Virus record (IMG/VR): IMGVR_UViG_3300034159_000059
DNA length: 64,000 nucleotides
DNA from: a virus
Direction: 5' to 3' (one strand)
Below the pieces are notes generated by a model. It was given only the letters and a program-made list of their open reading frames with translations, did not search any database and was not told the origin of the DNA. Every line of letters starts with the position of its first letter. Position 1 is the first letter of the stretch. Shown piece after piece: positions 8,831-56,325 of this stretch. The position numbers were made by a program, and so were the translations under genes.

Positions 8831-9145
8831 CTACGACTTCACGACGGCCAGCGATGTGAGCTGCCCGGAGGTATTCATGGTAAGGGCGAGGGACATTGTC
8901 TCCACCAAGGTGCCTGATGCGTCGTACTGTTTCTTTGTGACGGAGGTTAGGACCCCACTCACGTCACGCGAGAGGGAAGTCTCTCGGATCTTCTGCGTCT
9001 TCCCTGAAGACGTCCAGAGGATGACAGAAGAGAGACGCCCATTCACGTCTCTCGACAGCTCTAGGTAGCCAGTGAAGAGGCTCCCGTGCGCCAGAGTGTG
9101 TCTGGTGTCGTGAGATACCTCGTTGATGATGTGAGGAATGGGCAT
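8831..9145 (-). CDS. Hypothetical protein (distal end of the tail operon)
   Basis: 104-aa ORF; start abuts the stop of the upstream fiber gene. Confidence 0.45.
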   Translation of the reverse strand: MPIPHIINEVSHDTRHTLAHGSLFTGYLELSRDVNGRLSSVILWTSSGKTQKIRETSLSRDVSGVLTSVTKKQYDASGTLVETMSLALTMNTSGQLTSLAVVKS

Positions 9146-9147
9146 GG

Positions 9148-10785
9148 TCAGCTCATAGCGATGACGAGGTCTCCGACGTTATGGACGTCAGCGTCGATCT
9201 GAGAGAGATCCTTCTGTCCTGTCCCCTTCAGGCTGTTCACGGCGTTGGTGATGGCCGTATTCGATGCCGGGTCGGGGGGCAGGTAGTCTGTCTTGGTTCG
9301 GATGGACCCCACGACGTCTCGGTCGATTTGTTGGAAGCCTGATGAGGTAGAGGCTGGGTCGGGAGGGAGGTTGTCCGTCTTGGCTTTGATAGCGACGATG
9401 CGATCTCTGTCATCGGACGTGAAAGCGTTGGCGCCTACACCAACCACTGAATCGATATGAGAGTTCGAGGCGGGATCGGATGGCAGGTAGTCTGTCTTGG
9501 CGCGGACCGCGACGATGTCTGAACGGTTGCTGTCTTCCGTAGACTTGATCGAAGCGAGGGTAGTGCGATCGGTAGACGTGAACGAGTTGTTGGTGACTGT
9601 AGCCACTGCCACGGCAGTGGCGTGCAGAGAGTCTGTCGAGCCCGTATATCCAGTACCTGCTAGATAGTCTCGGGCTCCGTTCACACCTGTGGCAGATGCC
9701 GGATCCGAAGGAAGGTTGTCGGTCTTGAGCTTGACCCCACGAGCGTAGACGTAGGTCTCGCTGATGGTCCTCTTCACATTCGAGCCGTAAGAGTTGTCGA
9801 GCCCGAAGAGAGCATCTCTGGCAGTAGTCACATCGCCCTGAGTAGACACTACGGAAGCGGGCATGACTGCGTTGATGGCGTTCAGTGCAGCACGATCGTC
9901 TGCGGTGAAGCCTCCTGATCCGGAGACGATGCCTGTGAGAGAGAGCTGAAGCTGGTGCAGGGAGTCTGTGGCCGCGCTGAAGCCCGTTCCTGCAAGAGCG
10001 GTGACATCACTCTGAGCCGCAGGAGTTGCTGGAAGGTTGTCGGTCTTGAGCTTGACCGCAGCGAGCTCGATCTGAATGTTGTGTAGAGAGTCTGTGCCAG
10101 AGACCCAACCCGAACCGCCTTTGAGCTCAGTGGCTCGGCTGTCTGTGTTCGAGTTGATGGACGTGACTGCACTCGTCACGTCCCCAACGGCAGCAGGAGC
10201 CGCTGGAAGGTTGTCTGTCTTCGCCTTGATGGCGTTGACGTTCGAGCGATCGGATGAGTTGAAAGAGTTCGTACCCAGCCACGTCTCGATCCCTGAAGTA
10301 GACACCGGATCGGAGGGCAAGTTGTCGGTCTTGGCCTTGACTGCCAGAAGCGTAGTGCGATCGTCTGAGCCGAAACCGCCACCAGAACTGCTTCCAGCAG
10401 ATACGTTCTGAATGTCCGCGGAGATGGAGGTGCTGACTGGAGTGCCGAGACGGTTGTATACGTCGGTCGCGTCTGCAACGACGATCTTCACCACTCCAGG
10501 GTATCGAGCCGCGCCGACGCACGTGACCATGTACTGGAACACACCAGGCTGATCTGTGTACGTCGCTGGGATGAGGATGTTGTAGTACCCAGCCTGGGAG
10601 TAAGCCCCTTGAGTCTTCTCCTCCCACATGCTCGGTGAGACGGTCAGATTAAACATCGTCCCATCGGATTTGATGACTGTGCAGTTGATGGAGCTGTACG
10701 CGACTCCGGCCATAGGCGCGTCAGAGACAGAGTCAACCAAGGTGACTGGCGCACGAACCACAGTGCTTTGCTTGTATTCAAGCAT
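9148..10785 (-). CDS. Tail fiber-like protein with tandem (A/K)KTDNLP(x)PA repeat units
   Basis: At least 7 copies of a roughly 35-45-aa unit …AVKAKTDNLPSDPAS…; paralog of 22433..23803 with near-identical stretches (DVTSAVTSINSN). Confidence 0.65.
   Translation of the reverse strand: MLEYKQSTVVRAPVTLVDSVSDAPMAGVAYSSINCTVIKSDGTMFNLTVSPSMWEEKTQGAYSQAGYYNILIPATYTDQPGVFQYMVTCVGAARYPGVVKIVVADATDVYNRLGTPVSTSISADIQNVSAGSSSGGGFGSDDRTTLLAVKAKTDNLPSDPVSTSGIETWLGTNSFNSSDRSNVNAIKAKTDNLPAAPAAVGDVTSAVTSINSNTDSRATELKGGSGWVSGTDSLHNIQIELAAVKLKTDNLPATPAAQSDVTALAGTGFSAATDSLHQLQLSLTGIVSGSGGFTADDRAALNAINAVMPASVVSTQGDVTTARDALFGLDNSYGSNVKRTISETYVYARGVKLKTDNLPSDPASATGVNGARDYLAGTGYTGSTDSLHATAVAVATVTNNSFTSTDRTTLASIKSTEDSNRSDIVAVRAKTDYLPSDPASNSHIDSVVGVGANAFTSDDRDRIVAIKAKTDNLPPDPASTSSGFQQIDRDVVGSIRTKTDYLPPDPASNTAITNAVNSLKGTGQKDLSQIDADVHNVGDLVIAMS
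9225..10350 (-). repeat. Intragenic tandem repeat array encoding the KTDNLP units
   Basis: Recurrent (a)agaccgacaacct(t/g)cc(g/a)tc… DNA units; segment 10185-10255 is nearly identical to 23155-23225. Confidence 0.5.
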
Positions 10786-11637
10786 CTAGTTGGTCCTCGG
10801 GTTGGTGCGAGTGCGCTTGAGGTTCTTCATCGTTCCACCCGTACCAGTGGCTGTGGAGATGATGTTCTTCATGGGACGGGAAGCTGAGTGGTGGACCGGG
10901 ACCGAGCTCGCTTGAGGATTCGCAGCGGCATACAGAGGAGCCGCTGAGAGGTAGTGCTCAGTGATGCGAGCCTGGCTGAGCGCTCCGCTGTACACAGCCA
11001 TGTCATTGAGACGGATGTTATTGGCATAGTAGGACGTGGAATTCCCTAGAAGAGCGTTCGAGGAGTTTTTCACGGTCCCTGAAGAGACTGTCCCATACCC
11101 TGTCCCTAGAAGCACTTTGCCGTTCACGTACCAAGATGCGCCATTCACAAAGGATCCGGAGCCATCCCAAACCATCACCAGGTGGACCCAAGCGCCTGCC
11201 GAGTACGTCGCGTTCGGTGATGAGTTCGTATAGTTGGAGGTACCGTTATTCATGAGGAAGCTGAAATGCCCTTGGTAGGCGTACATCGACCAAGCGTTCG
11301 AGGACGATCCCTTGCTGATGATTCCCAAGTTCGTAGTGAGGAAGCCTATGTCAGCGAACCAGCACTCAACGGTGAAAGGCTGGTTGTACTCGAAGTCCCC
11401 GACCGAGGTCGGTAGTGTGACGACTCCGTTCGAATTCCCCGGGAAGGATACACACAAGCTGTCTGCCTTACCTCCGCCTAGACCGATCAAACGGGCATCT
11501 TGCCCAATCACCATAGAACTACCGTAGACCCCGTTCCGCCCGTTTGGGGAAGAATCCACAGCCGTCGTCCCTGAAGACTCGATGAGTCTCCAAAAACCAA
11601 CAGGAGAGTCTGCGAGCACTGCTGTAGCGTAGGACAT
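10786..11637 (-). CDS. Concanavalin A-like lectin/glucanase (LamG-type) domain protein; possible receptor-binding/adhesin module
   Basis: VGFWRL…SSPNGRNGVY…FTVECWF…AWVHLVMVWDGSGS…YVNGK matches the LamG jelly-roll signature; ATG at 11637 follows the stop of the upstream gene. Confidence 0.6.
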   Translation of the reverse strand: MSYATAVLADSPVGFWRLIESSGTTAVDSSPNGRNGVYGSSMVIGQDARLIGLGGGKADSLCVSFPGNSNGVVTLPTSVGDFEYNQPFTVECWFADIGFLTTNLGIISKGSSSNAWSMYAYQGHFSFLMNNGTSNYTNSSPNATYSAGAWVHLVMVWDGSGSFVNGASWYVNGKVLLGTGYGTVSSGTVKNSSNALLGNSTSYYANNIRLNDMAVYSGALSQARITEHYLSAAPLYAAANPQASSVPVHHSASRPMKNIISTATGTGGTMKNLKRTRTNPRTN

Positions 11638-11639
11638 GG

Positions 11640-12986
11640 CTATAGGTTGACGGGCATGAGGAAGAAGCGAAAAGTGCATACCGGGAAATAGGTGTAGAGG
11701 ATGACCTCTCCTATACTCGTAGAACTGTTGGTTCTAGAAGCAAAGGCGAAAGAAGACGCGCTGTACCCGTTGTACACGTCACCGGAAGGAGGCGTGTTAT
11801 TCCCTACACTGCCGGGGAAGTCACAGCGAATCATCACGTAGGTGTTGCCGTCATCAGAGGGTCCAAAACTCGCAAGATGGAGACCACTCGGATTCATGAT
11901 GGGGTACTTGAGGTACTTCACATCCCCTCGCTTCCCCTCATTCCCCACCATCCCTGTAGAGCTGGGCTTTGCACTCTGATACGCATCAACGTCGCAGTAC
12001 TGAAACCGAGCTGCGTCGTCGAGACTGGTTCTCGTGAAGTCGTCGAGGTACGAATACCCTCTCGGAGAGAGGGTCGTCATGCAGGGATGCTGGATTACGG
12101 AGTTGGACCACATGGTGCTACTGATGGACTTCCAGATCTCAGCGCATCCCACTGTGTTATTGGCGTCTGTAATACTTGTCGCATAGTATGCGTTCAACCC
12201 TGAGTAATCCATGTTCGAACACGCAAAGAGGAGGCAGGAAGTGTCCCCTACTCTGTAGGGAGTGAGATTCCCGACGTAGAGAAAGTCTGCGACTCCAGAG
12301 AAAGATGGATCTCCTGATGTCCAGAGCCCAAGAGCATCAGGCAGTGCCCATAGGATGTACTGAATCTTGCTGGTCGAAGACTGTTGAGAGCTGAAGCCTC
12401 TCATGATCTCCATCGTGCTCGGGTTGGCGCCGACATGGGTTGATGCGTTCCATGTCTCATACACCTGGACGAATAGTAGATCTCCGTAAGAAGCACCCCG
12501 AGCCAGTAGAACGTAGAAGGTCTTCTGCTGGCTCGTACACTGAAGAACAACGTACCCACCGGTCTTGGTGTACGCCCTGCCAGGAGAGATGCTGGTTCCT
12601 GTGTAGTTGCGATCCAGAGTCGCTTGGTAACCGTTGGCGTTGGCCGCGTTGATGGTGTACCAGTTGGACTGATCCGAAGAGATCTGAGTGACTCCGGGAG
12701 CGATACACCTCGCAAAGCGCATCGCGTTGTTGTTGCCTTGCGAGATGGCGCTAGACCCGTTGGTCATCGTGGTCCCGTTCGCAGATACCAAGCCGGTGAC
12801 GTAACCAGTACATGCAAACGGGACGACCAGAGGGGTTCCAGACCTCTGGTCATCGTATAGAGTCCAACCATTCACGCCACTTCCGATGTCAGCCACGATA
12901 TCGGAGAGGATGTTTGCGAAGCTCGAAACAGGAAGAGCGGTGTAGCCTTGAGGAGATCCACCAGTGTGAGGGAAGAACCCAGCCAT
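11640..12986 (-). CDS. Hypothetical tail fiber/baseplate-associated protein
   Basis: 448-aa ORF in the fiber cluster; Ser/Thr/Gly/Asn-rich, beta-rich composition. Confidence 0.5.
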   Translation of the reverse strand: MAGFFPHTGGSPQGYTALPVSSFANILSDIVADIGSGVNGWTLYDDQRSGTPLVVPFACTGYVTGLVSANGTTMTNGSSAISQGNNNAMRFARCIAPGVTQISSDQSNWYTINAANANGYQATLDRNYTGTSISPGRAYTKTGGYVVLQCTSQQKTFYVLLARGASYGDLLFVQVYETWNASTHVGANPSTMEIMRGFSSQQSSTSKIQYILWALPDALGLWTSGDPSFSGVADFLYVGNLTPYRVGDTSCLLFACSNMDYSGLNAYYATSITDANNTVGCAEIWKSISSTMWSNSVIQHPCMTTLSPRGYSYLDDFTRTSLDDAARFQYCDVDAYQSAKPSSTGMVGNEGKRGDVKYLKYPIMNPSGLHLASFGPSDDGNTYVMIRCDFPGSVGNNTPPSGDVYNGYSASSFAFASRTNSSTSIGEVILYTYFPVCTFRFFLMPVNL

Positions 12987-12992
12987 GTGTAG

Positions 12993-13637
12993 CTACCTCA
13001 TTCCGTAGTCAACGATCTGCACTTCGAGGTTGGAAGAAGATGTTGCGATGCCGAGCTGGATCATTCGATTTCCGGCCGACAAGGATTCGTACAGAGCAGG
13101 ATGCCCGTCCGTTGGACCTAGGAAGTAGGGAGTGCCTGGGGTGGCCCCTGAGAGGCCTCCAGTGAGTGCCCCGGCCACGAGAACCCCCACCCCGCCTCCT
13201 GATGCCACGGAGGCCGAAGCAACGCCTAGGACGAGGCTCTTGGCGTCGGTAGCGCAGTCTCCGTTCGCCACCCTCCCAGCCGAGGTGAGGTAGACCCCCG
13301 ACCCCTTCGTGACTCCATTCGAGACGAAGGTGGGCATGAGGAGGGTGGCAGTAGGAGCTCCTGGCCCGGCGCTTCCAGTCTGGAAGGCGGCCGAGATGGC
13401 TACACCAAGTTGACGGTAGAAAAGCTGGGCTGCTGCCGTCGTGAGGGAGAGGGATGCGGGGCTCTGATCCGGTCCTGGGGGAAGAACAGTTGCAGAAGGA
13501 AGAAGAGAAGGATCCGTCCCCCCTACTGCTCCGGACTCTATGAGTCGCAAGAAGGCTGCGACGAATGCTTCCGCGTTCGTGATGTCCGCGGTGGTGATCG
13601 GGAGAGGGCCGGTGGGAATCAGAACTGGATTCGGCAT
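12993..13637 (-). CDS. Hypothetical structural protein
   Basis: 214-aa ORF; Gly/Ala/Ser-rich. Confidence 0.5.
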   Translation of the reverse strand: MPNPVLIPTGPLPITTADITNAEAFVAAFLRLIESGAVGGTDPSLLPSATVLPPGPDQSPASLSLTTAAAQLFYRQLGVAISAAFQTGSAGPGAPTATLLMPTFVSNGVTKGSGVYLTSAGRVANGDCATDAKSLVLGVASASVASGGGVGVLVAGALTGGLSGATPGTPYFLGPTDGHPALYESLSAGNRMIQLGIATSSSNLEVQIVDYGMR

Positions 13638-13645
13638 CAGCTACC

Positions 13646-13903
13646 CTACCTCACGCTTCTGGTTGGCCGCATCGGGCTGAGCAGCTTCGGCTGTGGTTTG
13701 TAGATGCTCTCAGCCCACTGTGGGTCGATACGAACTCCGCAGAAAGGACAGTAGTTGATAGGAACGAGAAAGAAAACCCTTGGGTCGAACTCTGCACGGA
13801 CGCAGATGCTGAAGCGATCCGGATGCTGAGAGTAGGTGACGAGCGCATCGATGAAAGCCTGCATGAGATCGCAAGGAGTTCGGTCACAGACGCGATGAGC
13901 CAT
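13646..13903 (-). CDS. Small Cys-rich (zinc-ribbon-like) protein
   Basis: CDRTPCD…CPFCG cysteine pairs. Confidence 0.45.
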   Translation of the reverse strand: MAHRVCDRTPCDLMQAFIDALVTYSQHPDRFSICVRAEFDPRVFFLVPINYCPFCGVRIDPQWAESIYKPQPKLLSPMRPTRSVR

Positions 13904-13905
13904 GC

Positions 13906-14226
13906 TCAGCCTCCCTTCTGTCTTGCTGCCCTACGCTTGAGATACGAGAGGATCGTCTCTTCATCTTCGTCTTGCTTCACCATGAGCTGGATGGCCTCAT
14001 CTTCCCCAAAGACATCAAGGTCTTCATCTTTCAGCTTCGGGCGCTTCTTCGCCTCAACCGAGTCACTGGGAAGAACATGAACTCTCCCCAGGACATCGAG
14101 CATGAAGACAGCGGTACCGCAGCTTTTGAGAGCTGCGGTGGCCGCGATCCCGACTGCATAGAGGCTCGGGCGGTGCCCGCTCACGAGCTTGCTGAGAACC
14201 AAGTCCTCTTCGACCTTCTCCTCCAT
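13906..14226 (-). CDS. Hypothetical protein; first gene of this minus-strand block
   Basis: 106-aa ORF. Confidence 0.45.
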   Translation of the reverse strand: MEEKVEEDLVLSKLVSGHRPSLYAVGIAATAALKSCGTAVFMLDVLGRVHVLPSDSVEAKKRPKLKDEDLDVFGEDEAIQLMVKQDEDEETILSYLKRRAARQKGG

Positions 14227-14282
14227 GGGTCCTCCACTCCGGTTTGACAGTGCTACGCTGTCATTCTGCCACGTCCAGGCAG

Positions 14283-14359
14283 GTGAAAACCCCTTTCACT
14301 TCATGATACCAAAGCCGGTTTCGGTGCGGTAAACGTCGTGAAGTGAAAGCCCCTTTCAC
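14283..14359. promoter_or_regulatory. Two 17-bp perfect palindromes GTGAAA(A/G)CCCCTTTCAC, 60 bp apart; candidate operator pair
   Basis: 14283-14299 GTGAAAACCCCTTTCAC; 14343-14359 GTGAAAGCCCCTTTCAC; each preceded by (t)cgtgaa / caggcag(g); they sit in the divergent intergenic region upstream of the RHH-like gene. Confidence 0.5.
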
Positions 14360-14416
14360 CCTCGTACCCGGAACGGTGGCATCTTACATCAACTCGTCTT
14401 GAACAGGAGGTTGAGC

Positions 14417-14590
14417 ATGCCGGTAGGGTTCCCTCGCATGGAATTCCATCCCAGTCCGGATACCAGAAGGTACATCGAGAAGCTTCGAGAAGAGCTTTCG
14501 AAGAGCGCCAAGAAGCGAATTACCCTAAGTGAGGTTATCGAAGAGATTCTCCGCATGTACATCGAAAAGGCTGAGCGCGAGAGAGGGTAG
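14417..14590 (+). CDS. Small putative DNA-binding protein (ribbon-helix-helix-like)
   Basis: ATG 6 nt after AGGAGG; KKRITLSEVIEEILRMYIEKAE resembles the RHH/CopG beta-strand plus helix; directly downstream of the palindrome pair. Confidence 0.5.
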   Translation: MPVGFPRMEFHPSPDTRRYIEKLREELSKSAKKRITLSEVIEEILRMYIEKAERERG

Positions 14591-14674
14591 TTCTCAAGAA
14601 GCATCTTGCTTTTTCAGGTCTTGATGCTAAGAGATGCATGAGAAGAAGTTCTTCTCTCAAGAAAGGAAGAAGTC

Positions 14675-15280
14675 ATGCCTCGTGGCATTTACGATCGCAG
14701 TCAGATGAAGCCGAAGGGGACGGCCAAGACCGCCAAGGCGGCCGAGCCCACCACCGGCGGTGGGTCCGCTCTCACCAACTCCCCTCTGAAGAGGAAGTAC
14801 GTGAGGAAGGCCACCACACAAGCTCTCAAGGCTGTCCTCGACTCTCCCAAAGGGTTCGAGGCGTCTGGAACGGCGCCAGAGTCTGACCTCGGTGGCGTGG
14901 TCTTCTCTTCCGTCGGAATGCTCTACACCCATCTCGGTCAGCTCCACTCCGCAAGGGTGCAGCTCTCTCAGCAGAGCATCGACCACAACCCCAAGGTCAT
15001 CGCCGTCATCGACGAAGAGATCATCGCCACGCTCGGCTCTCTGAAGATCTGGAGACAGAACACCTTCAAGACCGAGAGCAAGGAGCCGGAAGCGCAGACC
15101 CAGAGCATCCCGGTGATCCCGCCGGCCCTTGTCGCAGCGGCCCCAGCGCCTGCCCCGGCACCCGCTCCAGCGCCTGCCCCTGCGTTCCAGGGAGCCTCTA
15201 CGATGACTCCGCCCCCCGCACCGCTCCCCTTCTCGCCCCAGACGGTCGAGGAAGTGCGCCGCGCATCCGGCCAGGCGTAA
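14675..15280 (+). CDS. Hypothetical protein with a C-terminal (Ala-Pro)n repeat
   Basis: RBS AAGGAAGAAG; AAAPAPAPAPAPAPAPAPA tract; simple DNA repeat at 15139-15186. Confidence 0.55.
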   Translation: MPRGIYDRSQMKPKGTAKTAKAAEPTTGGGSALTNSPLKRKYVRKATTQALKAVLDSPKGFEASGTAPESDLGGVVFSSVGMLYTHLGQLHSARVQLSQQSIDHNPKVIAVIDEEIIATLGSLKIWRQNTFKTESKEPEAQTQSIPVIPPALVAAAPAPAPAPAPAPAPAFQGASTMTPPPAPLPFSPQTVEEVRRASGQA

Positions 15281-15307
15281 CAAAACCGGCCGAGCAGAGA
15301 CTCGAAG

Positions 15308-15334
15308 GGCCCCGTTTCGGGGCCCTTTTTCTTC
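15308..15334 (+). terminator. Rho-independent terminator
   Basis: GGGCCCCG-ttt-CGGGGCCC followed by TTTTTCTT. Confidence 0.8.
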
Positions 15335-15386
15335 CCACGAGAGGCGTCTTCCTAGAGAATCCCCTTGAAACTGCAAGGGGATCCAC

Positions 15387-15599
15387 ATGGCGCTACGAGG
15401 TACAGTGAAGTGGTTCAACGATGCAAAGGGCTACGGGTTCATCAAGCCTGACGATGGGGGGAAGGACATCTTTGTCCACCACTCCGTCATCAAGATGGAT
15501 GGGTTCCGCACTCTCTCTGAAGGGGAGCGCGTCGAGTACACCATCGAGGCCGGGGCGAAGGGCCCGCAGGCCGTAAACGTCTCTCGCATCTCAGAGTAG
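15387..15599 (+). CDS. cspA: Cold-shock protein (CspA family, S1-like cold-shock domain)
   Basis: [35 protein letters not shown]…[20 protein letters not shown]: canonical CSD with RNP1 (KGYGFI) and RNP2 (VFVHH) motifs. Confidence 0.9.
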
Positions 15600-15614
15600 T
15601 GCTCAAGACAAGGG

Positions 15615-15658
15615 AAGGCCGCGCTCCCGGGGGGAAGAAGCGCGGCCTTCTTGTCGCC
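15615..15658. terminator. Hairpin terminator at the convergent boundary
   Basis: GAAGGCCGCGC-15 nt loop-GCGCGGCCTTC followed by TTGTCGCCC. Confidence 0.6.
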
Positions 15659-15680
15659 CTCCTGCCTCGTGGGGGGAGGG

Positions 15681-16397
15681 CTACGCTCCGATGGCTGCTT
15701 GAGCGGATGAGCCCGTGACCAGCGCGAGCTGAGCGACAGCGATGGGGACCACTCGCTCAGGCTGGAGTGCCACCTGCTCTTGCACCACACACCCCTGCGC
15801 GTCTGTCGCGATGGAGTGGGAGGGGATGTACGTCTCCTCCAAGTAGAAGGCGCAGAGCGTGGTCTCGTTCGAGTCCTTCATGTAGACGAGAAGACCACAC
15901 GGTTGCGAGAAGAGGTCCGACGCCAGGTTCAGGTAGATGTTCTCGAAGCCCGGCGGAATCTTCACGTCGTGTTGGTTGGCGACGCTCGCCATGATGTTCG
16001 GATCCACCCCGAACGTCGGAACGAGGGTGGGGGCCGGATCCTGGTAGAAGGCGTACATCACCCGGAGGATCGAGGGGCCGTTGTAGAGCACCCGTCCGAA
16101 GCCGGCCTGAGCGACGGTGCGCCCGGCGATGAAGTAGCTCCGCTCGCTCCCGAGCTCCCAGAAACGAGCGAAGGCCTTGTTGTGTGCGAGGTTGAAGTTC
16201 TGGACGATGCCGATGGGCAACGCCCAGTTCTGCTTGCCGACGGACGCCGCGGCTGCTGCTGATCCTCCCACGGCGGCGAGCCGGGGCGGACCAGCGGCGA
16301 GCATGGTGAAGACGCCCGAGGCGAAACGGCCCTCTCCCAGGGCCGACGAGTTGTCGACTTTCTGGGAGTAGGGCTGCCAGTTCGTGATGGAGGACAT
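15681..16397 (-). CDS. Tail structural protein (tube-like / tube-associated)
   Basis: 238-aa ORF immediately downstream of the sheath and putative tube genes. Confidence 0.45.
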   Translation of the reverse strand: MSSITNWQPYSQKVDNSSALGEGRFASGVFTMLAAGPPRLAAVGGSAAAAASVGKQNWALPIGIVQNFNLAHNKAFARFWELGSERSYFIAGRTVAQAGFGRVLYNGPSILRVMYAFYQDPAPTLVPTFGVDPNIMASVANQHDVKIPPGFENIYLNLASDLFSQPCGLLVYMKDSNETTLCAFYLEETYIPSHSIATDAQGCVVQEQVALQPERVVPIAVAQLALVTGSSAQAAIGA

Positions 16398-16437
16398 GAG
16401 CCGCTCCTTGAGTGAGGGTTGACGTCAACGCCTGTTG

Positions 16438-17079
16438 TTAGGCGTTGGCGAAGACCTCGAAGTCCTTCGAGCCATCGGCGAGGTTGCTCGCGGACGGAGT
16501 GAAGGCACTGTAGGTGAGGTCGATGGTGGAGACGTCCTGCACGCCTGCCACGAAGACCTGAACGTTGTCGCTCTGGAGCTTGACGGTCCCGCAGGCCAGC
16601 TTGTCGCCTGTGCCGAGAGAGACGACGTTGGTGGCGTGAGTGTCGGTGCCGCTACCAGTGTAGCTCATGCGCGTGACGGTCTTGAAGATCTTCGTCCCGT
16701 ACACGGCATTGCCCACACTGGCGACGATGGTATCGCTGGCCGCCTTACCGAACTGATCGGTGCCTTCGACCAGGACATCGCCGCCATCCCAGTCCGCGCC
16801 GAAGGTGCAGGAGACATTCCGAGCGAACGTGGGGTTGGTGGAAACCGTCACGCGCACCTTGGTGTCCGGGGCGACCGGAGCAGCGTCACCGAAGACGTTG
16901 GCATGAAGCACCGTGGCATTCTTCGCAGGCACGTCAGTGAGGGTGATCCTCACAGGAGAGCCCTTCACGTCTTCGGAGCCAGCTCCGTAAACGACGCCCT
17001 GGGCAGTGTAATCGCCCCTCCTCGCCAGGTTGGTGAGGAAGGTCCGAGCTCGATTCGAGAGGGAAGTGGGGACTGCCAT
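16438..17079 (-). CDS. Putative tail tube protein
   Basis: 213-aa beta-rich ORF directly downstream of the sheath gene (canonical myovirus order). Confidence 0.45.
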   Translation of the reverse strand: MAVPTSLSNRARTFLTNLARRGDYTAQGVVYGAGSEDVKGSPVRITLTDVPAKNATVLHANVFGDAAPVAPDTKVRVTVSTNPTFARNVSCTFGADWDGGDVLVEGTDQFGKAASDTIVASVGNAVYGTKIFKTVTRMSYTGSGTDTHATNVVSLGTGDKLACGTVKLQSDNVQVFVAGVQDVSTIDLTYSAFTPSASNLADGSKDFEVFANA

Positions 17080-17108
17080 GACTGTTTCTCCTTACAAGTA
17101 GATCGGGT

Positions 17109-20100
17109 TCAGACCACGAGCGTGAGGCGGATGTAGTTGCAGGGGTACGGGACGTCGAGGGTCACGTCGATCATCACGGTGTCCGGGTTCTCCGGGTCCT
17201 GGATGATGTTGTTGAGCTGCGCTCCGTTGAGGATGCCATTGTCCTTCAGGAACTCCAGCATGCCGGTGATGGTCGTCCCGATGGTGTCGAGGAAGACTGA
17301 GGTGATGTTCTGCCGGCCGATGAAGCGACGGATACCTGCCCGAAGGAACTTGGCGACGAAGTCGACGTCCTTCGTGATCGAGAGCTCTCGCGTCTCGATG
17401 GTCGATGTGTCGGTGGAGAGCTGGTGCCGGCAGAATACCGGTCCGCCCTGCACCTCCTGCATGAGGATGAAGGCACCTCCACCCGCCATCTGATCGAGCT
17501 GCTTCTTGGTGAACTTCTCCGTCCCCACCACCCCGGTGAGGCCGGTCATGGGGTAGTTGGTGAGTCCCTGCTGCGGAGGCAGGCCAGCGATCATGCCTGC
17601 CACGACCGCACAGGCGTAGTAGCCGGGGACTTCCTTCTCCAGACCCGCGACGGTGGTCTTCACCGTATCGGGGAAGAAGGAGTAGGCCCGCCGGTTCGCG
17701 ATGCCAGAGTTCAGCGTCGCGACGGTAGAGGCGACGAGGGAGTAGTCCGGTTTGGCGGGGGAAGAGCCTGCGATCATCAGGCTCGCGCCGCGCACATTCA
17801 TGCTCCAAGCCGCATCGAGGATGTCGGTTGGAAGGGCTACGACCTCGTAGAAGTAGTCGTCGTTCTCTCCGGCCGCGAAGGTGGTACGGAGATTCACGAG
17901 GCCGCCGGTCACCGAGGAGATTGAGTAACGGTAGAAGACGCCGTTCCAGTTGAACTCGATGTAGACGCCATTCGCCACGGTGAAGGGCAGTGACGGATTG
18001 ATTCCGGCATCGACGAGACCAGCTTGAGGCGTGACGTCGACGAGGAGCTGGTCGGCAGTGGCAGTCGAGTTCGCAGAGACGCCACTCACGACCGCCCTTG
18101 GGGCGCGGGTAGTGGGCTGCGTCTTGTTGAAGAGGACGATTCGCTCGCCCATCTCCTCGGGCTGGCTCATCAGCGTGACGTGGGTGTTGAAGAGCTGATG
18201 CACCACATCATTCTGGGTGAGCAGTGCGATGGTGTAGACCTCTTCCGACTCCAAGAAGTCGGCTGCTCTGGCGTAGGCGAGCTCGGTTCCTTCCGGAGCG
18301 GAGCCAGAGATCTCGTCGACCCCGAGGGCACCGACCACGAATCCTGGGCAGTTGAGAAGAGCCAGGTAGGTACCGAAGGCGAGAGGGTTGGCGTCCGTCA
18401 CCGGGTCCATCACCGAGGTGAGGGTGCTGGTGTCTTGGAGATGGACGACTCCCGCGACTGCCGCGGACGCCGAGACATCGCGACGAAGTCCCTTGAACTG
18501 GATGTAGAGAGATGCCGGGCTGGTGGCGAAGTCGAGGGGGTAGCCAGTGACTGGATCGCGGACGAGATCCGGACCGATCACCAGGTTGCTGCTCACATCG
18601 ACGTAGGCGTCAGGATTCGGACGCCCTGTTCCGGCTGTCGCGGTCTGCGCTGCCGTGAAGCCGAGAGCCGTGAGAGCGGTTCCGTCGACGATGTAGACCA
18701 GAGATCCCGCGCCAGCAAGGGTGCTGGTGAGGACGAGGTTCGTCCCCGCTCCGTTCTTCGAAGCGACTGTGCCACCGACGAGCTGGTTGACGGTGTCGAC
18801 GGCGATGTCGAGCGAGGTATCGGTGAAGCCCACATCGTAGACGTGAGCGCCTCGGTCTAGAGAGAATCGGAGGTTCTCTCCAGTGAGCCCAGAGAACGAA
18901 GCGTCGGTTCCGGTACCGCTGGTGTCCGCGCTGGTGGAGTAGCCGAGGACCGTGGCCGCGGAGCTCGTCGCCTTGAAGGTGATGCTCTGAAGCCTTCCCG
19001 TCTTGGCGGTGGCAAGCTTCAGCTTGCCGGAATCGACAGAGGCAACGACGCCCGTGATGCTGACGGCCGCAGCCATTCCGGCGACGGTGGTGACGGGGGT
19101 GGAGCTTGTGAAGGTGAACGTTCCGACTGTCGCGACTCCATCCACCGTGAGGATGTAATCGATCCGGAGACCGGCGAGAGCCACGCCTCCGGACGGATCC
19201 GGGACGGCCCCGCCTTCGACCGAGGCGGCCACTGCTGCGGAAGCCGCAGCCGATCCCGTGACGGTGGACTTGGTTGCCGAAACGGTGGGCGAGAGCCCCG
19301 TTGCCTTGAACCACACGTACTGCGGCGCGAAGGGGGCAGCGTCGATGGGAAGACCGAGAAGAGCGTCGTCGTAGGTCTTCGAGAGGTAGCGGCCTTCCGT
19401 GTCAGCGGTAGAGAGGGCAGCGTCGATGGTGCCCATCCGGAAGCGAGTCGGATCGACGCGAGAGATCTCACCGCTCTTGAGCCGCGTGCCGTCGGCCCAG
19501 ATCTGATCCCCTGCCAGGATCGGGATGCCGTTGGTGCCGAAGGTGATGGCGGCAGAGCGTGCATGCGTCAGCGCGCCTGTGGCGACGTTGATCATGCCGG
19601 CATGAGAGGCCCAGGCCGAGTCTGCCGAAGAGACCCCACCCACGCTGTAGTCGCCACGGAAGAACTCGATCCAGGCGCTCTGTGTGGTGTTGTTCTGGAG
19701 GTTGTATGCACGGTAGCCGGCGCCGCACACCCTCTCTTCGGTTCCGACAGAGCCGACGGAGTTCCAGCCGATGCCGAGAAGAGCATTCGCCGTCCCACCC
19801 GCGCGCACCGTGATTGAGGAGAGCGCCCCGTAGCTCGGAGAGGAGAGACGGACGCCTGTGACGGAATCCCCCGACACAGTGACCGAAGCGATCGCCATCC
19901 CAAAGGCGTTGTTGATGACGGTGACGATGTCGGCCGGCGCGTAAGGAGACGAGCCCGGAAACGGGATGGTCACGTCTTGCGTGGTGTTGGCCGTAGTCGG
20001 CTGGTCGATGGCGAGAACGAGGTTCTGCCCACCGATGGAGAAGCTGGTTCCGACGATGTCGAGGACCGCCTTGGACGCCACATGGCTTGCGACCAGGAAG

Positions 20101-20426
20101 CCTTCTCCAGGATTCATCAGGAGCTCAGCGAGCCGACCTCCTGTGTAGAGGAAGGGACGGATCGAAGCCGTCTGGATGTCGACCTCGTCGATGTTGCCTC
20201 GCGGGTTCGGGAAAGACGAATGGGTGATCGTCTTTCCGAGCTGCGCGTAAGCACCGTACTTCGCCTTCGAGTTGATGGTTCCATCGGAGGTGAGGACGTT
20301 GATGACCTCGAAGGCCGCACCGACGATGACCGGCGCGAGCGTCGGCGTGAGGAACGTCGGCGACGTCTTGCGCGCGGTCTGAATGACATCGACGCCTGGC
20401 CGGGCGATCTCAGCAGTGGCGGCCAT
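17109..20426 (-). CDS. Tail sheath protein (1105 aa, with large insertion domains)
   Basis: N-terminus MAATAEIARPGVDVIQT… and C-terminus …QGGPVFCRHQLSTDTS…YIRLTLVV match the conserved sheath terminal domains; the long Thr/Ser/Gly/Ala middle is consistent with extra insertion domains. Confidence 0.8.
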   Translation of the reverse strand: MAATAEIARPGVDVIQTARKTSPTFLTPTLAPVIVGAAFEVINVLTSDGTINSKAKYGAYAQLGKTITHSSFPNPRGNIDEVDIQTASIRPFLYTGGRLAELLMNPGEGFLVASHVASKAVLDIVGTSFSIGGQNLVLAIDQPTTANTTQDVTIPFPGSSPYAPADIVTVINNAFGMAIASVTVSGDSVTGVRLSSPSYGALSSITVRAGGTANALLGIGWNSVGSVGTEERVCGAGYRAYNLQNNTTQSAWIEFFRGDYSVGGVSSADSAWASHAGMINVATGALTHARSAAITFGTNGIPILAGDQIWADGTRLKSGEISRVDPTRFRMGTIDAALSTADTEGRYLSKTYDDALLGLPIDAAPFAPQYVWFKATGLSPTVSATKSTVTGSAAASAAVAASVEGGAVPDPSGGVALAGLRIDYILTVDGVATVGTFTFTSSTPVTTVAGMAAAVSITGVVASVDSGKLKLATAKTGRLQSITFKATSSAATVLGYSTSADTSGTGTDASFSGLTGENLRFSLDRGAHVYDVGFTDTSLDIAVDTVNQLVGGTVASKNGAGTNLVLTSTLAGAGSLVYIVDGTALTALGFTAAQTATAGTGRPNPDAYVDVSSNLVIGPDLVRDPVTGYPLDFATSPASLYIQFKGLRRDVSASAAVAGVVHLQDTSTLTSVMDPVTDANPLAFGTYLALLNCPGFVVGALGVDEISGSAPEGTELAYARAADFLESEEVYTIALLTQNDVVHQLFNTHVTLMSQPEEMGERIVLFNKTQPTTRAPRAVVSGVSANSTATADQLLVDVTPQAGLVDAGINPSLPFTVANGVYIEFNWNGVFYRYSISSVTGGLVNLRTTFAAGENDDYFYEVVALPTDILDAAWSMNVRGASLMIAGSSPAKPDYSLVASTVATLNSGIANRRAYSFFPDTVKTTVAGLEKEVPGYYACAVVAGMIAGLPPQQGLTNYPMTGLTGVVGTEKFTKKQLDQMAGGGAFILMQEVQGGPVFCRHQLSTDTSTIETRELSITKDVDFVAKFLRAGIRRFIGRQNITSVFLDTIGTTITGMLEFLKDNGILNGAQLNNIIQDPENPDTVMIDVTLDVPYPCNYIRLTLVV

Positions 20427-20438
20427 CTTCTGCTCCTT

Positions 20439-21200
20439 TCACTTCCGAAGCTTGCGGGGTCTCGGCACGAGAGTCGCGACCCGTTGAGTGAGCGAAATCA
20501 CTTTTGTGTCCTTCAGAACTCGTCCACCGATCGCCGGTTCTCGTAGAGCGGGTTGCTCTGCCGGCGTCGTGCCGTTGACCTCAGAAGTTAGTATCAGGTC
20601 GAGCTCTTTGAGAAGAAGTTTGTCTACGGGCGAGATGCGATATGAATCCTGAAAGAAGAATGGGACTGTGACCGAGACAAGAGAAAAGTCCTTCCCAGAG
20701 TCAGGAAGAAGCGATCCTGCGTCTGTTTCCGCGCTGTAAGAGATGTCTTCTCCGACTCGGTGCATGCCTGCTCGAAGAAGATTCCTCTTGAGCGTTCGGG
20801 TCGCATACCCAGCGATCCAGGCAATGCGTTGTGCCTCCAACCCCTCACGAGCGAGACAGTTGTAGACCATGGTCGCAGCGACCAGGTCGGTGTGGGACTT
20901 GGCCCCCGTCTCGAAGTCGTAGTCCTTGAACTGATCCATCGAGATGTTGGACCAAGCAGCAGGCCCTCTCATGCAGACAATGGCGGGACGCTTCTCCAAG
21001 ACATCAGCTCTCAACACCCCTTGATCACTGACGAGGATGTCAGAGTTCTCTTGGTCCGGCTCCCACTTGTACGAGCCCTTGTCGAACGTGGAGAAGACGA
21101 GCTGAAGAAAGCGAACGAAGACCTTGGTGAAGTGGAGAAGGGGGTCTTCTCCAACTCCTTGTGGCTGCGGGGGCCCGTTGCTGTTCTTCAGCTCACTCAT
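20439..21200 (-). CDS. Hypothetical tail protein
   Basis: Start moved to the internal ATG (MSELKNSNGP…); the ORF track extension from 21260 overlaps the upstream gene. Confidence 0.45.
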   Translation of the reverse strand: MSELKNSNGPPQPQGVGEDPLLHFTKVFVRFLQLVFSTFDKGSYKWEPDQENSDILVSDQGVLRADVLEKRPAIVCMRGPAAWSNISMDQFKDYDFETGAKSHTDLVAATMVYNCLAREGLEAQRIAWIAGYATRTLKRNLLRAGMHRVGEDISYSAETDAGSLLPDSGKDFSLVSVTVPFFFQDSYRISPVDKLLLKELDLILTSEVNGTTPAEQPALREPAIGGRVLKDTKVISLTQRVATLVPRPRKLRK

Positions 21201-21573
21201 CAGACTCGACCATCTTCTGCTGACGGGTATTCGCGTAGTTCTGAGCGGCCATGAGCCCAACCATGGAGACGCCGAGAAGGGGGTAAAGCACTCGCTGTTT
21301 GAAAGCGGGGCTCATCTGCGGGTACTTGCTCTTGAGAGCGGTAGAGAGGCCCTTGTCAATGAGGGCCGCCGCTCCATGACCTGCTGCATACCCAAGGGCG
21401 TAGGTGGCACCCGACTTGAGGGCCTTCTTCCAGCGGGGGTTCTTCTTGATCGCATCTTCCGCGATCTTCTCGACCTCATCGAGACAAGAAGCGTTTCGCA
21501 GCTCGTTGCGCTGGTCAGCGAAGCGTGCCTTGTGGGTGGCCGAAAAACGACAGGATGTCCTTGTAGTCGGCAT
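21193..21573 (-). CDS. Hypothetical protein carrying an LDEVEKIAED motif; either an overlapped ATG start or expressed by -1 frameshift from the upstream gene
   Basis: The protein-like part of ORF 21193..21741 begins exactly where the upstream gene (21515..22432) ends; slippery G_TTT_TTC at 21542-21548. Confidence 0.3.
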   Translation of the reverse strand: MPTTRTSCRFSATHKARFADQRNELRNASCLDEVEKIAEDAIKKNPRWKKALKSGATYALGYAAGHGAAALIDKGLSTALKSKYPQMSPAFKQRVLYPLLGVSMVGLMAAQNYANTRQQKMVESDE

Positions 21574-22432
21574 CGGGAGAGTCGATGTTCTGGGCGTTGC
21601 GGAAGTTCCTCTCGGAAGCAGGGACCAGTCCCTGAGCATCGATGTTGAGGGGAATGGAGTACTCGATGTCGCTTCTCGGGACCTCATGGAGCTGAAGCTC
21701 TTGATGAACGACAGCTCTAAGTCTCTGGGTTGGCACAACATTCACTACTCGCCAACGCCTATTCTCTGACTCGATGAGTATGTCCCGGGGGGAGACGGGT
21801 GGGAAGGATGAACACCGTGCGGCGGTGTTTGATGGCTGGGTCTCCCCCATGGCTTGAAGAGCCACCTGCTTCGGGTTGGGGTCGAATTGGATGAAGATCT
21901 CGACGGGAGAGAGGTAACCCCCAAGCCATCCTGTCCCAAAGCATGGGAGATGGTTGGACCGAGCGATGCGGTTCAGCGTGGCGTCGTAGCAAGAGCAACG
22001 AGGACCGAACGTGCGCGCTGGGAACAACCAACTACGACGCCCGACGAACTCCCGGAAGAGTTGGTCTTCTTCCCGAATGATGGCGGAAGCGAGGATGTCT
22101 GGTGCCGCTTCTGAGGAGGCGGTGGGGCCCACCTCGGCTGTCTCATTCGTGCGCCGATCTACGATCCGAAGCTTGTAGAAGAACTGGCGCCACTTGTGGA
22201 GCGCGGGAACGCGATTGTCTCGGAAGCGATACAGGTCGCGGAAAGGCCCACCCATGACAGCATACGGCCCCATCGCTGCCTCAGAGCGCAGGACGAAGAA
22301 GTCGTAGTTGTAGATCTCGTGGCTCTTCAGATCCGAGTCTGTAGACGGACCCCTCACCGTCGAGATTTCCCAGAAGACGTCCAGGAAGTCGATGGAGAAG
22401 GAGCGTACCCAGAGCTTCGTGACTGTGAGCAC
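21515..22432 (-). CDS. Hypothetical tail/baseplate protein
   Basis: 305-aa ORF between the fiber and sheath genes. Confidence 0.5.
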   Translation of the reverse strand: MLTVTKLWVRSFSIDFLDVFWEISTVRGPSTDSDLKSHEIYNYDFFVLRSEAAMGPYAVMGGPFRDLYRFRDNRVPALHKWRQFFYKLRIVDRRTNETAEVGPTASSEAAPDILASAIIREEDQLFREFVGRRSWLFPARTFGPRCSCYDATLNRIARSNHLPCFGTGWLGGYLSPVEIFIQFDPNPKQVALQAMGETQPSNTAARCSSFPPVSPRDILIESENRRWRVVNVVPTQRLRAVVHQELQLHEVPRSDIEYSIPLNIDAQGLVPASERNFRNAQNIDSPDADYKDILSFFGHPQGTLR

Positions 22433-23803
22433 TTACGGATCCTTGAGCTTCGAGAACTGCTGGAGGTTGCTGGTGTTGGGGATGTAGGAGCCGGTGATGG
22501 AGTAGACCGCGATCGGGTTCGTCTTGTTGATGGCGTCGTTGCGCGTCGGGTAGATGCGGATCTTGCCGCTGATGAGGTTGTTTCGAGCGTCGAAGTCCGT
22601 GTCCTCGATCTGGACGTTCTCCCCACAGAGCCCAAGAACCTTCGTCAGGTTATCCTTCACGGAGCTGAGCCAGACGTTGAAGTCCGAAGGGATGAGATCC
22701 GTCTTGGCCTTGATGTCTGTCAGGGTTCCGGACGCCGTACCAAGGCTACCAAGACCTGAAGCAACGGAGTCGAGAGCAGCTTTAGTAGAATGGAGGTCGT
22801 CTCCAGTCCCGAACCCCACCCCTTCGATGGAGTCGAGCTTTCCTGAGATAGCAGCGAGGTCGGTGGCAGGTGTTCCCTTGACCCCAGCAATGGCAGTCGT
22901 GATCACTTCCTGAGAGGTGGTGATCGCCCCTTCGATACCCGACTCCGCAGTTCCGAGGGCGTCTGTGACTACCGTCTGCGAAGAACCGATCTGGGAGAAG
23001 ACCTCTGAGAGATCCTTGCTGGAAGCGCCTTTGAGGCTTGCGACTGCTCCTGAGACGTCTCCAGAGCTCGCAGGTGCGGCGGGGATGAGGTCCGTCTGAG
23101 CCTTGATGTCCGCGGCCAGTGTAGAGGTGTTTGAGTTGATGCTCGTCACGGCACTCGTGACATCCCCTGTCGTAGCCGGAGCCGCAGGAAGGTTGTCTGT
23201 CTTCGCCTTTACCGCGAGCACATCCGTGTCTACTTGGGTGAGGTCTTTGGAAGACGCTCCCATGATAGCGGCCTGTGCCGAAGTCACGTCTGCTTGAGCC
23301 GCAGGCGTTGCGGGAAGATTGTCTGTCTGGGACTTGACTGCGAGAACGTCGGTATCGACCTGAGAGAGGTCCTTGCTTGACGCACCCTTGATGCTGGTGA
23401 CGGCGCTTGTCACATCACTCTGGGAAGCAGGGGTAGCAGGCAAGTTGTCGGTCTTGGTTTTGACTGCCAAGACGTCGGTGTCGACTTGAGACAGGTCCTT
23501 GTTCGAGGCGCCTTTGACTCCTGTCACTGCGGCATCGATGTAACCAGTGTTGAAGAGCTGGTCCTGGTCCTTGAGAGTGGCGCCGAGAGACACTCCTCCG
23601 GCAGAGACGCGGAAGATGACGTTGTGAACACCTGTCGGAGCAGCCGACCAGTCGTAGTCGAAGTAGTACCACCCGTCCCCGCTCGTGACCTCCGTAATGG
23701 TCGGAGGCGTAGAGAGGTCAGCCAAGGTATCGAGCCGCTTCCAGATGCTGAAGGCCGGAGTGAGGCCGGTCTTCCCTGCACCGAAATCAAGACCGTATCG
23801 CAT
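22433..23803 (-). CDS. Tail fiber-like protein with KTDNLP repeat units (paralog of 9148..10785)
   Basis: 4-5 tandem units …KDLSQVDTDVLAVK(T/A)KTDNLPATPA(S/A)QSDVTSAVTSI…; shares identical peptides and near-identical DNA with the other fiber. Confidence 0.65.
   Translation of the reverse strand: MRYGLDFGAGKTGLTPAFSIWKRLDTLADLSTPPTITEVTSGDGWYYFDYDWSAAPTGVHNVIFRVSAGGVSLGATLKDQDQLFNTGYIDAAVTGVKGASNKDLSQVDTDVLAVKTKTDNLPATPASQSDVTSAVTSIKGASSKDLSQVDTDVLAVKSQTDNLPATPAAQADVTSAQAAIMGASSKDLTQVDTDVLAVKAKTDNLPAAPATTGDVTSAVTSINSNTSTLAADIKAQTDLIPAAPASSGDVSGAVASLKGASSKDLSEVFSQIGSSQTVVTDALGTAESGIEGAITTSQEVITTAIAGVKGTPATDLAAISGKLDSIEGVGFGTGDDLHSTKAALDSVASGLGSLGTASGTLTDIKAKTDLIPSDFNVWLSSVKDNLTKVLGLCGENVQIEDTDFDARNNLISGKIRIYPTRNDAINKTNPIAVYSITGSYIPNTSNLQQFSKLKDP
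22990..23515 (-). repeat. Intragenic tandem repeat (about 126-nt units) encoding the KTDNLP repeats
   Basis: Repeated …ggaaggttgtctgtcttcgcc… unit visible in the DNA. Confidence 0.5.
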
Positions 23804-56000: not shown

Positions 56001-56325
56001 ACTCACCCCCGTCCACGATGAACGAGTAGCGAGAGGTGAGCTTGGGGACCCGAGCGAGTTGGATGGTCGACTTGGAGATGGGCTTGCCCGTGATGTTGTC
56101 GATCAGCTCCATCTCCGCCCGGATCGGCACACCCCAAGTCTGTTCGTTGTGCTTGGCTTGGAGCTGCGAAGCGACATCGTTCGGATCGAGAGTATCTTCC
56201 GCCCAGATTCTCTTGAGCGACAGAGTTCTCTGACTCGTCTGGATGGGGAAGATGCTGGAAATCTGCTGGATGACGCCATTGGTGAGGGTCGTCATCTTGT
56301 CGGCGGTCTTAGGCTCACCGGCCAC
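50014..56325 (-). CDS. rpoBC: Single-polypeptide bacterial-type multisubunit RNA polymerase: beta (RpoB-like) fused to beta' (RpoC-like), 2103 aa
   Basis: Beta signatures [12 protein letters not shown] and [22 protein letters not shown]…[17 protein letters not shown]; beta' catalytic motif [24 protein letters not shown]; the beta' N-terminal Zn-finger region appears absent; GTG start with GGAG RBS (alternative ATG at 56295). Confidence 0.9.
   Translation of the reverse strand: [2103 protein letters not shown]

Follow-up and report, generated by a model that had tools for sequence, protein, structure and literature searches.

Why would one phage genome carry two long fibre-like genes built on the same short peptide motif? 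The question is raised by IMG/VR virus record IMGVR_UViG_3300034159_000059, a stretch of 64,000 nucleotides (the window) from an uncultured soil phage of about 209 kb with a contractile tail. The minus strand carries all of its genes for terminase, portal, major capsid protein (at 30856-32037) and tail sheath. The two open reading frames (ORFs) in question have the same orientation and are separated by 11.6 kb:

9148-10785, minus strand: gene A, an ORF of 545 residues for a KTDNLP-repeat fibre-like protein.
22433-23803, minus strand: gene B, an ORF of 456 residues for a KTDNLP-repeat fibre-like protein, directly upstream of a neck stopper gene.

The original prediction described A and B as paralogous tail fibers that share near-identical DNA, and proposed that this DNA feeds recombination, unit shuffling, copy-number instability and host-range variation. 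Here we report that the two genes and their common repeat are real, and that the DNA they share is too short and too diverged to drive recombination or instability. In our reading, which we consider probable, A and B are virion fibres of one plan: B is a whisker-like fibre close to the neck or head, A is a distal, LamG-associated fibre, and no active recombination links the two.

The relationship between the genes is well defined. Both ORFs are confirmed, the motif is common to both, and BLASTP of A against B gives an expectation value (E) of 5e-20, at about 30% identity and in the repeat region only. A protein identical to B (P0001) is on record from a metagenomic contig of 209,442 bp. The database protein P0002 corresponds to A begun at a later Met; the true start of A is the ATG at 10785, which is supported by orthologues. 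Megablast of positions 9148-23803 against GenBank phages gave no match. 'Paralogous' holds in the sense of distant paralogues, joined by the repeat and by a family of N-terminal domains that iterative profile searches connect. Of 'tail fibers', the fibre-like build stands; 'tail' is unproven for B, whose gene sits in a neck module.

How is the repeat laid out? A six-frame translation of the window contains 10 copies of the strict motif KTD[NYL][LI]P, each of them within A or B, and 30 shuffles produced none. The same six-frame scan found no further family member in the window. When Q is allowed in the first position ([KQ]TD[NYL][LI]P), A has seven copies, at residues 152, 189, 247, 354, 430, 469 and 498, and B has five, at residues 117, 159, 201, 236 and 367. 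Together with the domains around them, some taken from an AlphaFold 2 (AF2) model with its predicted local distance difference test scores (pLDDT), these are:

9175-10374, minus strand: repeat region of A, residues 138-537, with seven motif copies and one degenerate unit.
10315-10332, 10204-10221, 10030-10047, 9709-9726, 9481-9498, 9364-9381 and 9277-9294, minus strand: motif copies of A.
10471-10785, minus strand: N-terminal Ig-like (immunoglobulin-like) domain of A, residues 1-105, a putative virion anchor linked to the domain of B by jackhmmer.
22631-23491, minus strand: helical shaft of B, residues 105-391, from the AF2 helices and motif positions.
23438-23455, 23312-23329, 23186-23203, 23081-23098 and 22688-22705, minus strand: motif copies of B.
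23549-23803, minus strand: N-terminal beta-sandwich of B, residues 1-85 (AF2 strands at 2-85, pLDDT about 80-89).
22436-22615, minus strand: C-terminal beta domain of B, residues 397-456 (AF2 pLDDT about 90 or higher; jackhmmer).

Tandem units of 35-45 residues had been proposed for both proteins. They describe B, where successive motifs are 42, 42 and 35 residues apart before a final gap of 131, but not A, where the spacing is irregular (37, 58, 107, 76, 39 and 29 residues). The peptide DVTSAVTSI, taken to be part of the unit core, does exist, with two occurrences in B and one in A; not every unit contains it. Another type of unit, IKGxxxKDLSQVDxDV, also occurs in B and is peculiar to the group of B orthologues. 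Within A, a decayed unit, DRAALNAINAVMPASV, lies at 9898-9957 on the minus strand (residues about 277-296, more specifically 296-315). The orthologues of A keep an intact KAKTDLLPADP there; the A of this genome has thus lost one motif by point changes and not by deletion. A second recurrent motif, (R/K)(I/L)G(A/T)P(V/A)(G/S)xS(I/L)SADI, stands at residues 111-125 of A (window positions about 10411-10455); it recurs in many relatives. A, its orthologues and several orthologues of B (P0041, P0077) have it ahead of their KTDNLP units, and it may mark the transition from anchor to shaft.

Is the repeat known? Searches based on B returned 215 proteins from a set clustered at 90%; in a set clustered at 50%, at least 1,171 representative clusters matched at E <= 1e-3. 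In IMG/VR, a pattern scan located the repeat in at least 288 coding stretches, the contigs being 5-197 kb long. The longest member of the family has 3,466 residues and 15 matched stretches. Most members have regular units of 42 or 37 residues, and A is irregular in this respect. Both A and B have the family layout of at least two KTDNLPxxPA-type motifs, spaced by about 20-60 residues, behind an Ig-like N-terminal domain. No family in Pfam-A, PHROGs or NCBIfam matches the repeat in A, B or their relatives. Profile matches to A and B were at chance level (PilS, BLOC1S3, PEP_C, and one PHROG of unknown function at E = 0.006), and PF27363, which appears on three relatives, is a faint 'YuaX' match and not the repeat. 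Searches of PDB sequences with A and B gave nothing (for B, at E <= 10), the searchable literature held nothing relevant on KTDNLP or TDNLP in a phage context, and tblastn of A, B and the family member P0006 against GenBank phages found a single carrier, the uncultured siphovirus MW202621. The repeat had not been recognised from characterised fibre families, and these searches agree: it is real, widespread and undescribed.

What kind of structure does the repeat form? Among 120 relatives the commonest interval from motif to motif is 42 residues (90 intervals), followed by 37, 20, 46 and 31. A unit of 42 residues equals six heptads. Its family consensus, KTDNLPSDPADASDIAASFSTVNTTLATIAGYVDTEVAAIKA, has Ile, Val, Leu or Phe at positions 15, 19, 22, 26, 29, 33, 37 and 40 and Pro solely at positions 6 and 9, and its hydrophobicity power peaks at a period of 3.5, at a value that 30 of 2000 shuffles reach. 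Segments end with the consensus (I/V)K(A/T)KTDNL and are followed by a Pro-x-x-Pro-Ala break. The AF2 model of B, a monomer computed from a 23-sequence alignment (mean pLDDT 67; predicted template modelling score, pTM, 0.25), places beta structure at residues 1-85, helices at 105-391 that end wherever a KTD stands and begin again past the proline stretch, and beta structure again at 397-454.

From this model we read the unit as one coiled-coil segment, with the Thr and Leu of the motif as its predicted last core residues. The beta-branched core suggests a trimer, which on sequence grounds is the most likely state of such a coiled coil. In the plan common to A and B, the N-terminal Ig-like beta-sandwich would dock the fibre on the particle and a segmented coiled-coil shaft would follow. 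KTDNLP would then be the punctuation of that shaft: Thr and Leu continue the heptad core, and the P-x-x-P-Ala break opens the next segment. On this account the motif would be neither a binding site nor a tandem array at the DNA level. A beta-helix or collagen-like fold had also been suggested; the AF2 helices and the period of 3.5 contradict both, and the shaft has no G-X-Y pattern.

Heptad registers punctuated by short conserved polar motifs of Lys, Thr and Asp are known in phage fibres. Alpha/beta coiled coils contain beta-layers in trimeric fibres, including the stalks of trimeric autotransporters and HylP1, a Streptococcus prophage tail-fibre hyaluronidase (Hartmann et al. 2016, PMC4786415). 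Could KTD be such a layer? The beta-layer consensus is [aliphatic]-A-T-K-[polar]-[DE] (PMC4786415), and the sequence here, A-I-K-A-K-T-D-N-L-P followed by a proline break, differs from it. We set the beta-layer reading aside, as Thr and Leu fit core heptad positions; to judge by the sequence, KTDNLP is at least equally likely to be the plain end of a helix.

The two proteins are joined by their N-termini and set apart by their C-termini. In jackhmmer searches with the first 110 residues of family proteins, the domain of A reaches that of B at E = 6e-14 (in a set of 241 sequences), and the searches from A and from B have 138 matches in common. An alignment of these N-terminal domains (A8) shows a common pattern with an invariant G-x-Y core. 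A comparison of shallow A and B profiles by hhalign found no link and is superseded by the iterative searches and the alignment. About 160 of the 240 family members carry the domain. At the other end, B has a beta domain of about 60 residues, and A stops about 45 residues past its last motif. Compared with PDB sequences, the A8 profile gives its best, though marginal, matches to FdeC (4e9l, E = 0.021) and to a putative invasin (5n40, E = 0.24). It resembles the Big_1 domains of intimin, invasin and FdeC in its TG...v...G.Y.l.l pattern; Pfam Big_1 itself does not match A or B at E <= 0.1, and we take the likeness as a hint of fold class, not as membership of Big_1. A 'putative neck whiskers protein gp24' (9occ, E = 0.29) was also matched by the profile, over its C-terminal Ig domain, and we judged it uninformative.

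Where on the particle would B belong? Its gene neighbourhood comprises:

21515-22432, minus strand: 305-residue neck (stopper-like) protein gene, immediately downstream of B.
20439-21260, minus strand: 273-residue gene between stopper and sheath, syntenic in loci L002, L003, L007, L008, L009 and L053.
17109-20426, minus strand: tail sheath gene of 1105 residues, between A and B (PHROG 279, E = 1.6e-16; Pfam Phage_sheath_1, E = 4e-6).
15614-15650, minus strand: terminator-like hairpin with a 15-bp stem and 10 G-C pairs, which closes the B-neck-sheath-tube unit and parts it from the A unit.

The stop of B abuts the start of the 305-residue gene (22432/22433), in the same orientation. This neighbour has 272 homologues, many of them on contigs of about 200 kb, and the best 120 of the 272 are 53-75% identical to it. 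A Foldseek search of PDB with its AF2 model (pLDDT 73) returned phage neck and stopper proteins as the best matches, at E = 5e-4 to 5e-3: the neck and stopper of phage 812 (8q01_S, E = 4.9e-4; 8qgr), the neck of SaPI1 (9mu3_C), the connector of mycobacteriophage Douge (8zdj_M) and XkdH of PBSX (3f3b). The 305-residue model also has an additional Ig/FN3-like N-terminal domain. Three cysteines of the protein (C146, C148 and C164), invariant in 33 homologues, may form a metal site. Profiles of the 273- and 305-residue neighbours found no match among PDB sequences; the 273-residue gene has no Pfam or PHROG match either. The order B, 305 residues, about 110 residues, about 265 residues, sheath (1104-1212 residues), tube-like genes is kept in four relatives (L002, L003, L008, L009). 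The sheath is unusually long in the window as in these relatives, and sheath profiles match its last 180 or so residues only.

Using the 305-residue gene as an anchor in IMG/VR, we collected 43 loci. In 15 genomes, the window included, the gene directly upstream is a member of the B family with both end domains. These proteins have 196, 250 (three times), 258, 270, 279, 309, 312, 314, 362, 435 (twice), 456 (the window) and 507 residues, and their middle region spans about 41 to 352 residues. Motif copies number none in ten genomes, one in three, two in one and five in the window. At the ends, the N-terminal domain is 35-51% identical in 13 positional orthologues, and the C-terminal domain is present in all 15 (jackhmmer, E = 1e-30 to 1e-37). 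B would be co-transcribed with the neck stopper, sheath and tube genes and would add a conserved C-terminal beta domain to the common plan; with its end domains kept, the shaft would lengthen or shorten by whole units, and the reach of the fibre would be tuned by their number.

A gene next to the neck, fixed ends and an elastic shaft lead us to read B as a fibre near the neck or head that may function like fibritin of phage T4. Fibritin (Wac) has an N-terminal anchor, coiled-coil segments with short loops between them and a small C-terminal beta domain, and its gene is placed immediately upstream of those for neck and sheath. B shows the same three-part layout, and its gene likewise adjoins neck genes upstream of the sheath, with synteny in 15 genomes. 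The family member P0040 is similarly placed, ahead of a sheath gene and of genes that match gp13 and gp15 of T4, and P0006, which has a Phage_connect_1 gene beside it, points in the same direction. No Pfam (E <= 0.1; no Fibritin_C foldon), PDB-sequence or fold similarity between B and fibritin was found, however. The C-terminal domain of B has about 60 residues, as against 27 for the fibritin foldon; its N-terminus is an Ig-like sandwich of about 85 residues, and KTDNLPxxPA punctuation is not a feature of fibritin.

Several points weigh against this reading. Gene adjacency is no proof of the attachment site of B. The neck assignment of its neighbour depends on Foldseek E values near 5e-4, with template modelling scores (TM-scores) of 0.3-0.6, for a model of pLDDT 73. 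Other family members sit in other contexts: MW202621 and locus L057 have theirs among head genes, and L055 near a cell-wall hydrolase gene. The shaft of B is modelled as a monomer at low confidence (the pLDDT of 67 and pTM of 0.25 given above), so that trimer and coiled coil stay predictions, and Foldseek of the B model against PDB and BFVD reached a best E of 0.15-0.2. In A, the segments between motifs are rich in Gly, Ser and Asn as well as irregular, so the coiled coil may not extend to every part of A. The evidence that links the N-termini of A and B comes from iterative searches in a small, pre-selected set, and the reciprocal search from B missed A. We infer, from gene order and protein architecture, that A and B belong to the virion, and likewise their trimeric state, their position on the particle and their function.

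Could B instead be a capsid (head) fibre or decoration protein, its N-terminal Ig-like domain binding the capsid surface? The model here is gp8.5 of phage phi29, a head fibre in which an N-terminal beta base carries a trimeric shaft built from repeated short helices and turns. B has N-terminal beta structure and a helical shaft as well, and its gene too lies between head and tail genes, in this case between the capsid gene and the neck genes. The homologue in MW202621 lies between portal and major capsid genes, P0059 follows a putative portal gene, and P0006 follows capsid and portal genes, between them and a Phage_connect_1 gene. The N-terminal profile is weakly Ig-like, and its match list includes a phage cement protein, at E = 2. 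Yet neither the fold nor the sequence of B matches gp8.5 or any decoration protein: neither PDB-sequence nor Foldseek searches reach the fibre (e.g. PDB 3QC7), and unit length and motif differ. Unlike gp8.5, B adjoins a neck gene and not a capsid gene; it is co-oriented with the stopper gene, end to start, and belongs to one unit together with sheath and tube. In more distant relatives the position is without a B, and the capsid and neck genes are kept; this pattern fits any accessory fibre and does not discriminate. We regard a head fibre as unlikely, though it deserves to be taken seriously.

A lies in a setting of its own, at the end of a cluster of LamG-lectin genes:

10786-11679, minus strand: gene with a LamG domain (concanavalin-like lectin), immediately upstream of A (Pfam Laminin_G_3, E = 4e-15).
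8831-9145, minus strand: shortened partner gene of 104 residues, immediately downstream of A (tblastn).

The unit in the window runs 214 residues, 448 residues, LamG, A, 104 residues. In L004 and L053, sheath and tube genes are followed by 210 residues, 456 residues, LamG, A and a small partner; L005 also has this LamG neighbour, and in L059 another family member lies behind a LamG cluster. The 104-residue gene corresponds to the first 100 or so residues of proteins of 278-280 residues that follow the A orthologues in L004 and L053 (47-60% identity). It has YD-like internal repeats; the C-terminal domain of about 180 residues is missing here, and the coding strand switches immediately after. 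Five orthologues of A (P0021, P0029, P0014, P0025 and P0015) align with it from end to end at 48-52% identity and are collinear unit for unit, which means that its copy number has been stable over a long divergence. A and B also occur independently of each other: UViG_3300013121_000038 has A without B, and UViG_3300013121_000039 has both. We propose that A is a separate and much more stable gene, probably the shaft or adaptor of a distal adhesin fibre.

If the two genes are so distinct, why do they share DNA at all? The segments in question are:

10145-10227, unstranded: A copy of the shared DNA segment, encoding KAKTDNLPAAPAAVGDVTSAVTSINSNT, with an exact 23-mer at 10205-10227.
23127-23209, unstranded: B copy of the shared DNA segment, with the exact 23-mer at 23187-23209.
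9184-9237, minus strand: residues 517-534 of A (NSLKGTGQKDLSQIDADV), a B-type unit at the C-terminus of A, not in A orthologues.

The top match found by blastn covers 83 nt at 83% identity. Within it the longest exact words measure 23 nt and 19 nt; the other high-scoring pairs between A and B are 29-48 nt long. The DNA string quoted for the near-identical segments exists, and one off-diagonal match of some length stands, beginning about 30-40 nt below where it had been placed on both copies; it does not amount to near-identity. In the 28-residue peptide encoded by both copies, 26 residues are identical, and the codons of 9 of these 26 differ synonymously. Full synonymous randomisation would give 15.1 +/- 2.2 differing codons (P = 0.007, uncorrected); the pair is the best of 35 unit pairs, and the deficit is lost after correction for that choice.

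At the protein level the resemblance is more specific. The 14-mer GDVTSAVTSINSNT, with up to three substitutions allowed, occurs only in A and B among 240 family proteins, and exact identity over the 14 residues is confined to the A and B of this genome. Where A carries NSLKGTGQKDLSQIDADV, its orthologues have NKVGTPxxTVxxDI; the pattern KDL[ST][QE][VI]DxDV (KDLSQIDADV in A) is found only in B orthologues and at the C-terminus of A, where the DNA is identical to that of a B unit at 37 of 54 nt (69%). B scores 141.7 bits against the A of this genome, and 95.7 and 83.0 bits against A orthologues. The closest short relative of B (L010, 270 residues) does not have the four tandem units. Two patches of B type that only the A of this genome carries, together with the excess in bit score, suggest an old exchange of units between A and B, which probably took place once. 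The 83-nt match would then reflect purifying selection on a common peptide on top of that exchange.

Convergent or parallel selection, for instance by a common chaperone or docking partner, might have produced the extra similarity with no exchange of DNA. The two patches are not much alike in DNA (83% and 69% identity), the synonymous deficit does not survive correction, and units of the type PAxxGDVT[ST] occur in 16 of the 240 family proteins; these points speak for convergence. Against it stand the exact 14-residue identity in just these two genes, the presence in A of a second unit type otherwise specific to B, and an excess of 46-59 bits over the A orthologues, for which transfer is the simpler account. 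We consider convergence an unlikely explanation, though not a negligible one, and continue with an old exchange. Unit shuffling had been put forward as well: a past exchange seen in the proteins is plausible, but shuffling is not a present-day property of the DNA.

A diversity-generating retroelement, with A and B as template and variable repeat, was considered and rejected: the 14 mismatches in 83 nt are of all kinds, fall largely at third codon positions and are not adenine-specific, although no systematic search for a reverse-transcriptase gene was made.

What remains of active recombination? This idea makes A and B tail fibres or receptor-binding proteins whose shared DNA and arrays drive recombination, unit shuffling, copy-number change and host-range variation. 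It can point to the common units and the 83-nt segment, to the widely differing shaft lengths among B orthologues, to the B-like patches in A and to the LamG lectin-type genes next to A. But the DNA is a poor substrate. Tandem Repeats Finder (TRF) detects no array of unit length in A or B. Compared with one another, the three 42-residue units of B are 67-78% identical in protein and 59-67% in DNA, where unbroken identity extends over 8-10 nt; internal DNA repeats of 12 nt or more are absent from B, and the longest in A are 27 and 19 nt. Among the B units synonymous change is saturated: of 34 codons for identical residues 21 differ, where 19.9 are expected. Copy-number instability of intragenic arrays thus has nothing to act on, and what relatives show is divided: A is conserved one to one in orthologues of about 50% identity, and B varies from none to five motifs among positional orthologues. 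For homologous recombination the shared segment is poor, with exact identity of only 23 nt and synonymous divergence around it. The A and B copies are, moreover, direct repeats on either side of the neck, sheath and tube genes. A crossover would therefore delete essential genes and be lethal; only conversion without crossover would be tolerable. Finally, the C-terminal domain of B is conserved and not hypervariable, and its gene sits in the neck module. Host-range variation by A/B recombination is not supported for the present sequence, and we consider this explanation as a whole improbable.

The zone upstream of the B orthologues is itself variable (L008, 8670-9149; L009, 2694-9403; L003, 6309-9149). 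It holds large adhesin-type genes with LamG, TIG, fn3 and CHB_HEX_C domains, of up to 1,825 residues, that differ between close relatives. These genes are likelier host-range determinants than A or B.

That A or B, or both, are coiled-coil assembly factors outside the virion, scaffold-like proteins or chaperones, would suit their helical, coiled-coil-rich composition, the weak matches of relatives to coiled-coil families (P10, ZapA, PEP_C) and the position of some relatives in the head-gene region, the usual site of scaffold genes, but a long shaft between a folded Ig-like domain at the N-terminus and a folded domain at the C-terminus is typical of fibres and not of scaffolds, relatives reach the 3466 residues and 15 matched stretches noted above, and the neighbours are LamG, TIG and fn3 adhesin-type genes, which makes this very improbable.

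Our preferred reading, two virion fibres of one plan, can be carried further, though more tentatively. The KTDNLP unit may be a very widespread building block by which environmental phages adjust the length of whiskers near the neck or head, an analogue of fibritin without homology to it, and in this jumbo phage A and B may have exchanged such units; we hold this fuller version to be possible, if somewhat doubtful. If it is true, a common pool of parts would serve two fibre systems, one at either end of the tail. Segmented coiled-coil fibre shafts are familiar parts of phages, and the biology itself is unsurprising. What is new is that the repeat and its Ig-like anchor make up a large family without a database model, a solved structure or a publication; a description of this family would let many 'hypothetical' structural genes of soil and freshwater phages be annotated. 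In the B series, whose ends are fixed and whose lengths run from 196 to 507 residues, nature offers a clean case of shaft-length tuning. The pair also teaches that a repeat in protein need not mean instability in DNA: the synonymous sites are scrambled, and the genes look stable.

Some minor features of the window complete the picture. The terminator-like hairpin comes directly after a gene of 238 residues (15681-16397), and a plus-strand ORF (14675-15280) lies in the gap beyond; at this position past the hairpin, L002 and L003 carry a cold-shock-domain gene on the opposite strand. An exact direct repeat of 26 nt (15156-15181 and 58757-58782) encodes a Pro-Ala tract, (CCNGCN)n, in that plus-strand ORF; its second copy falls within the portal-gene region, probably as a low-complexity coincidence. 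An ORF of 2103 residues (50014-56325, minus strand) adjoins a gene with a weak PHROG match to baseplate assembly (48940-50013). Giant genes like it, of 1,765-2,127 residues, are present in L002, L003, L008 and L055.

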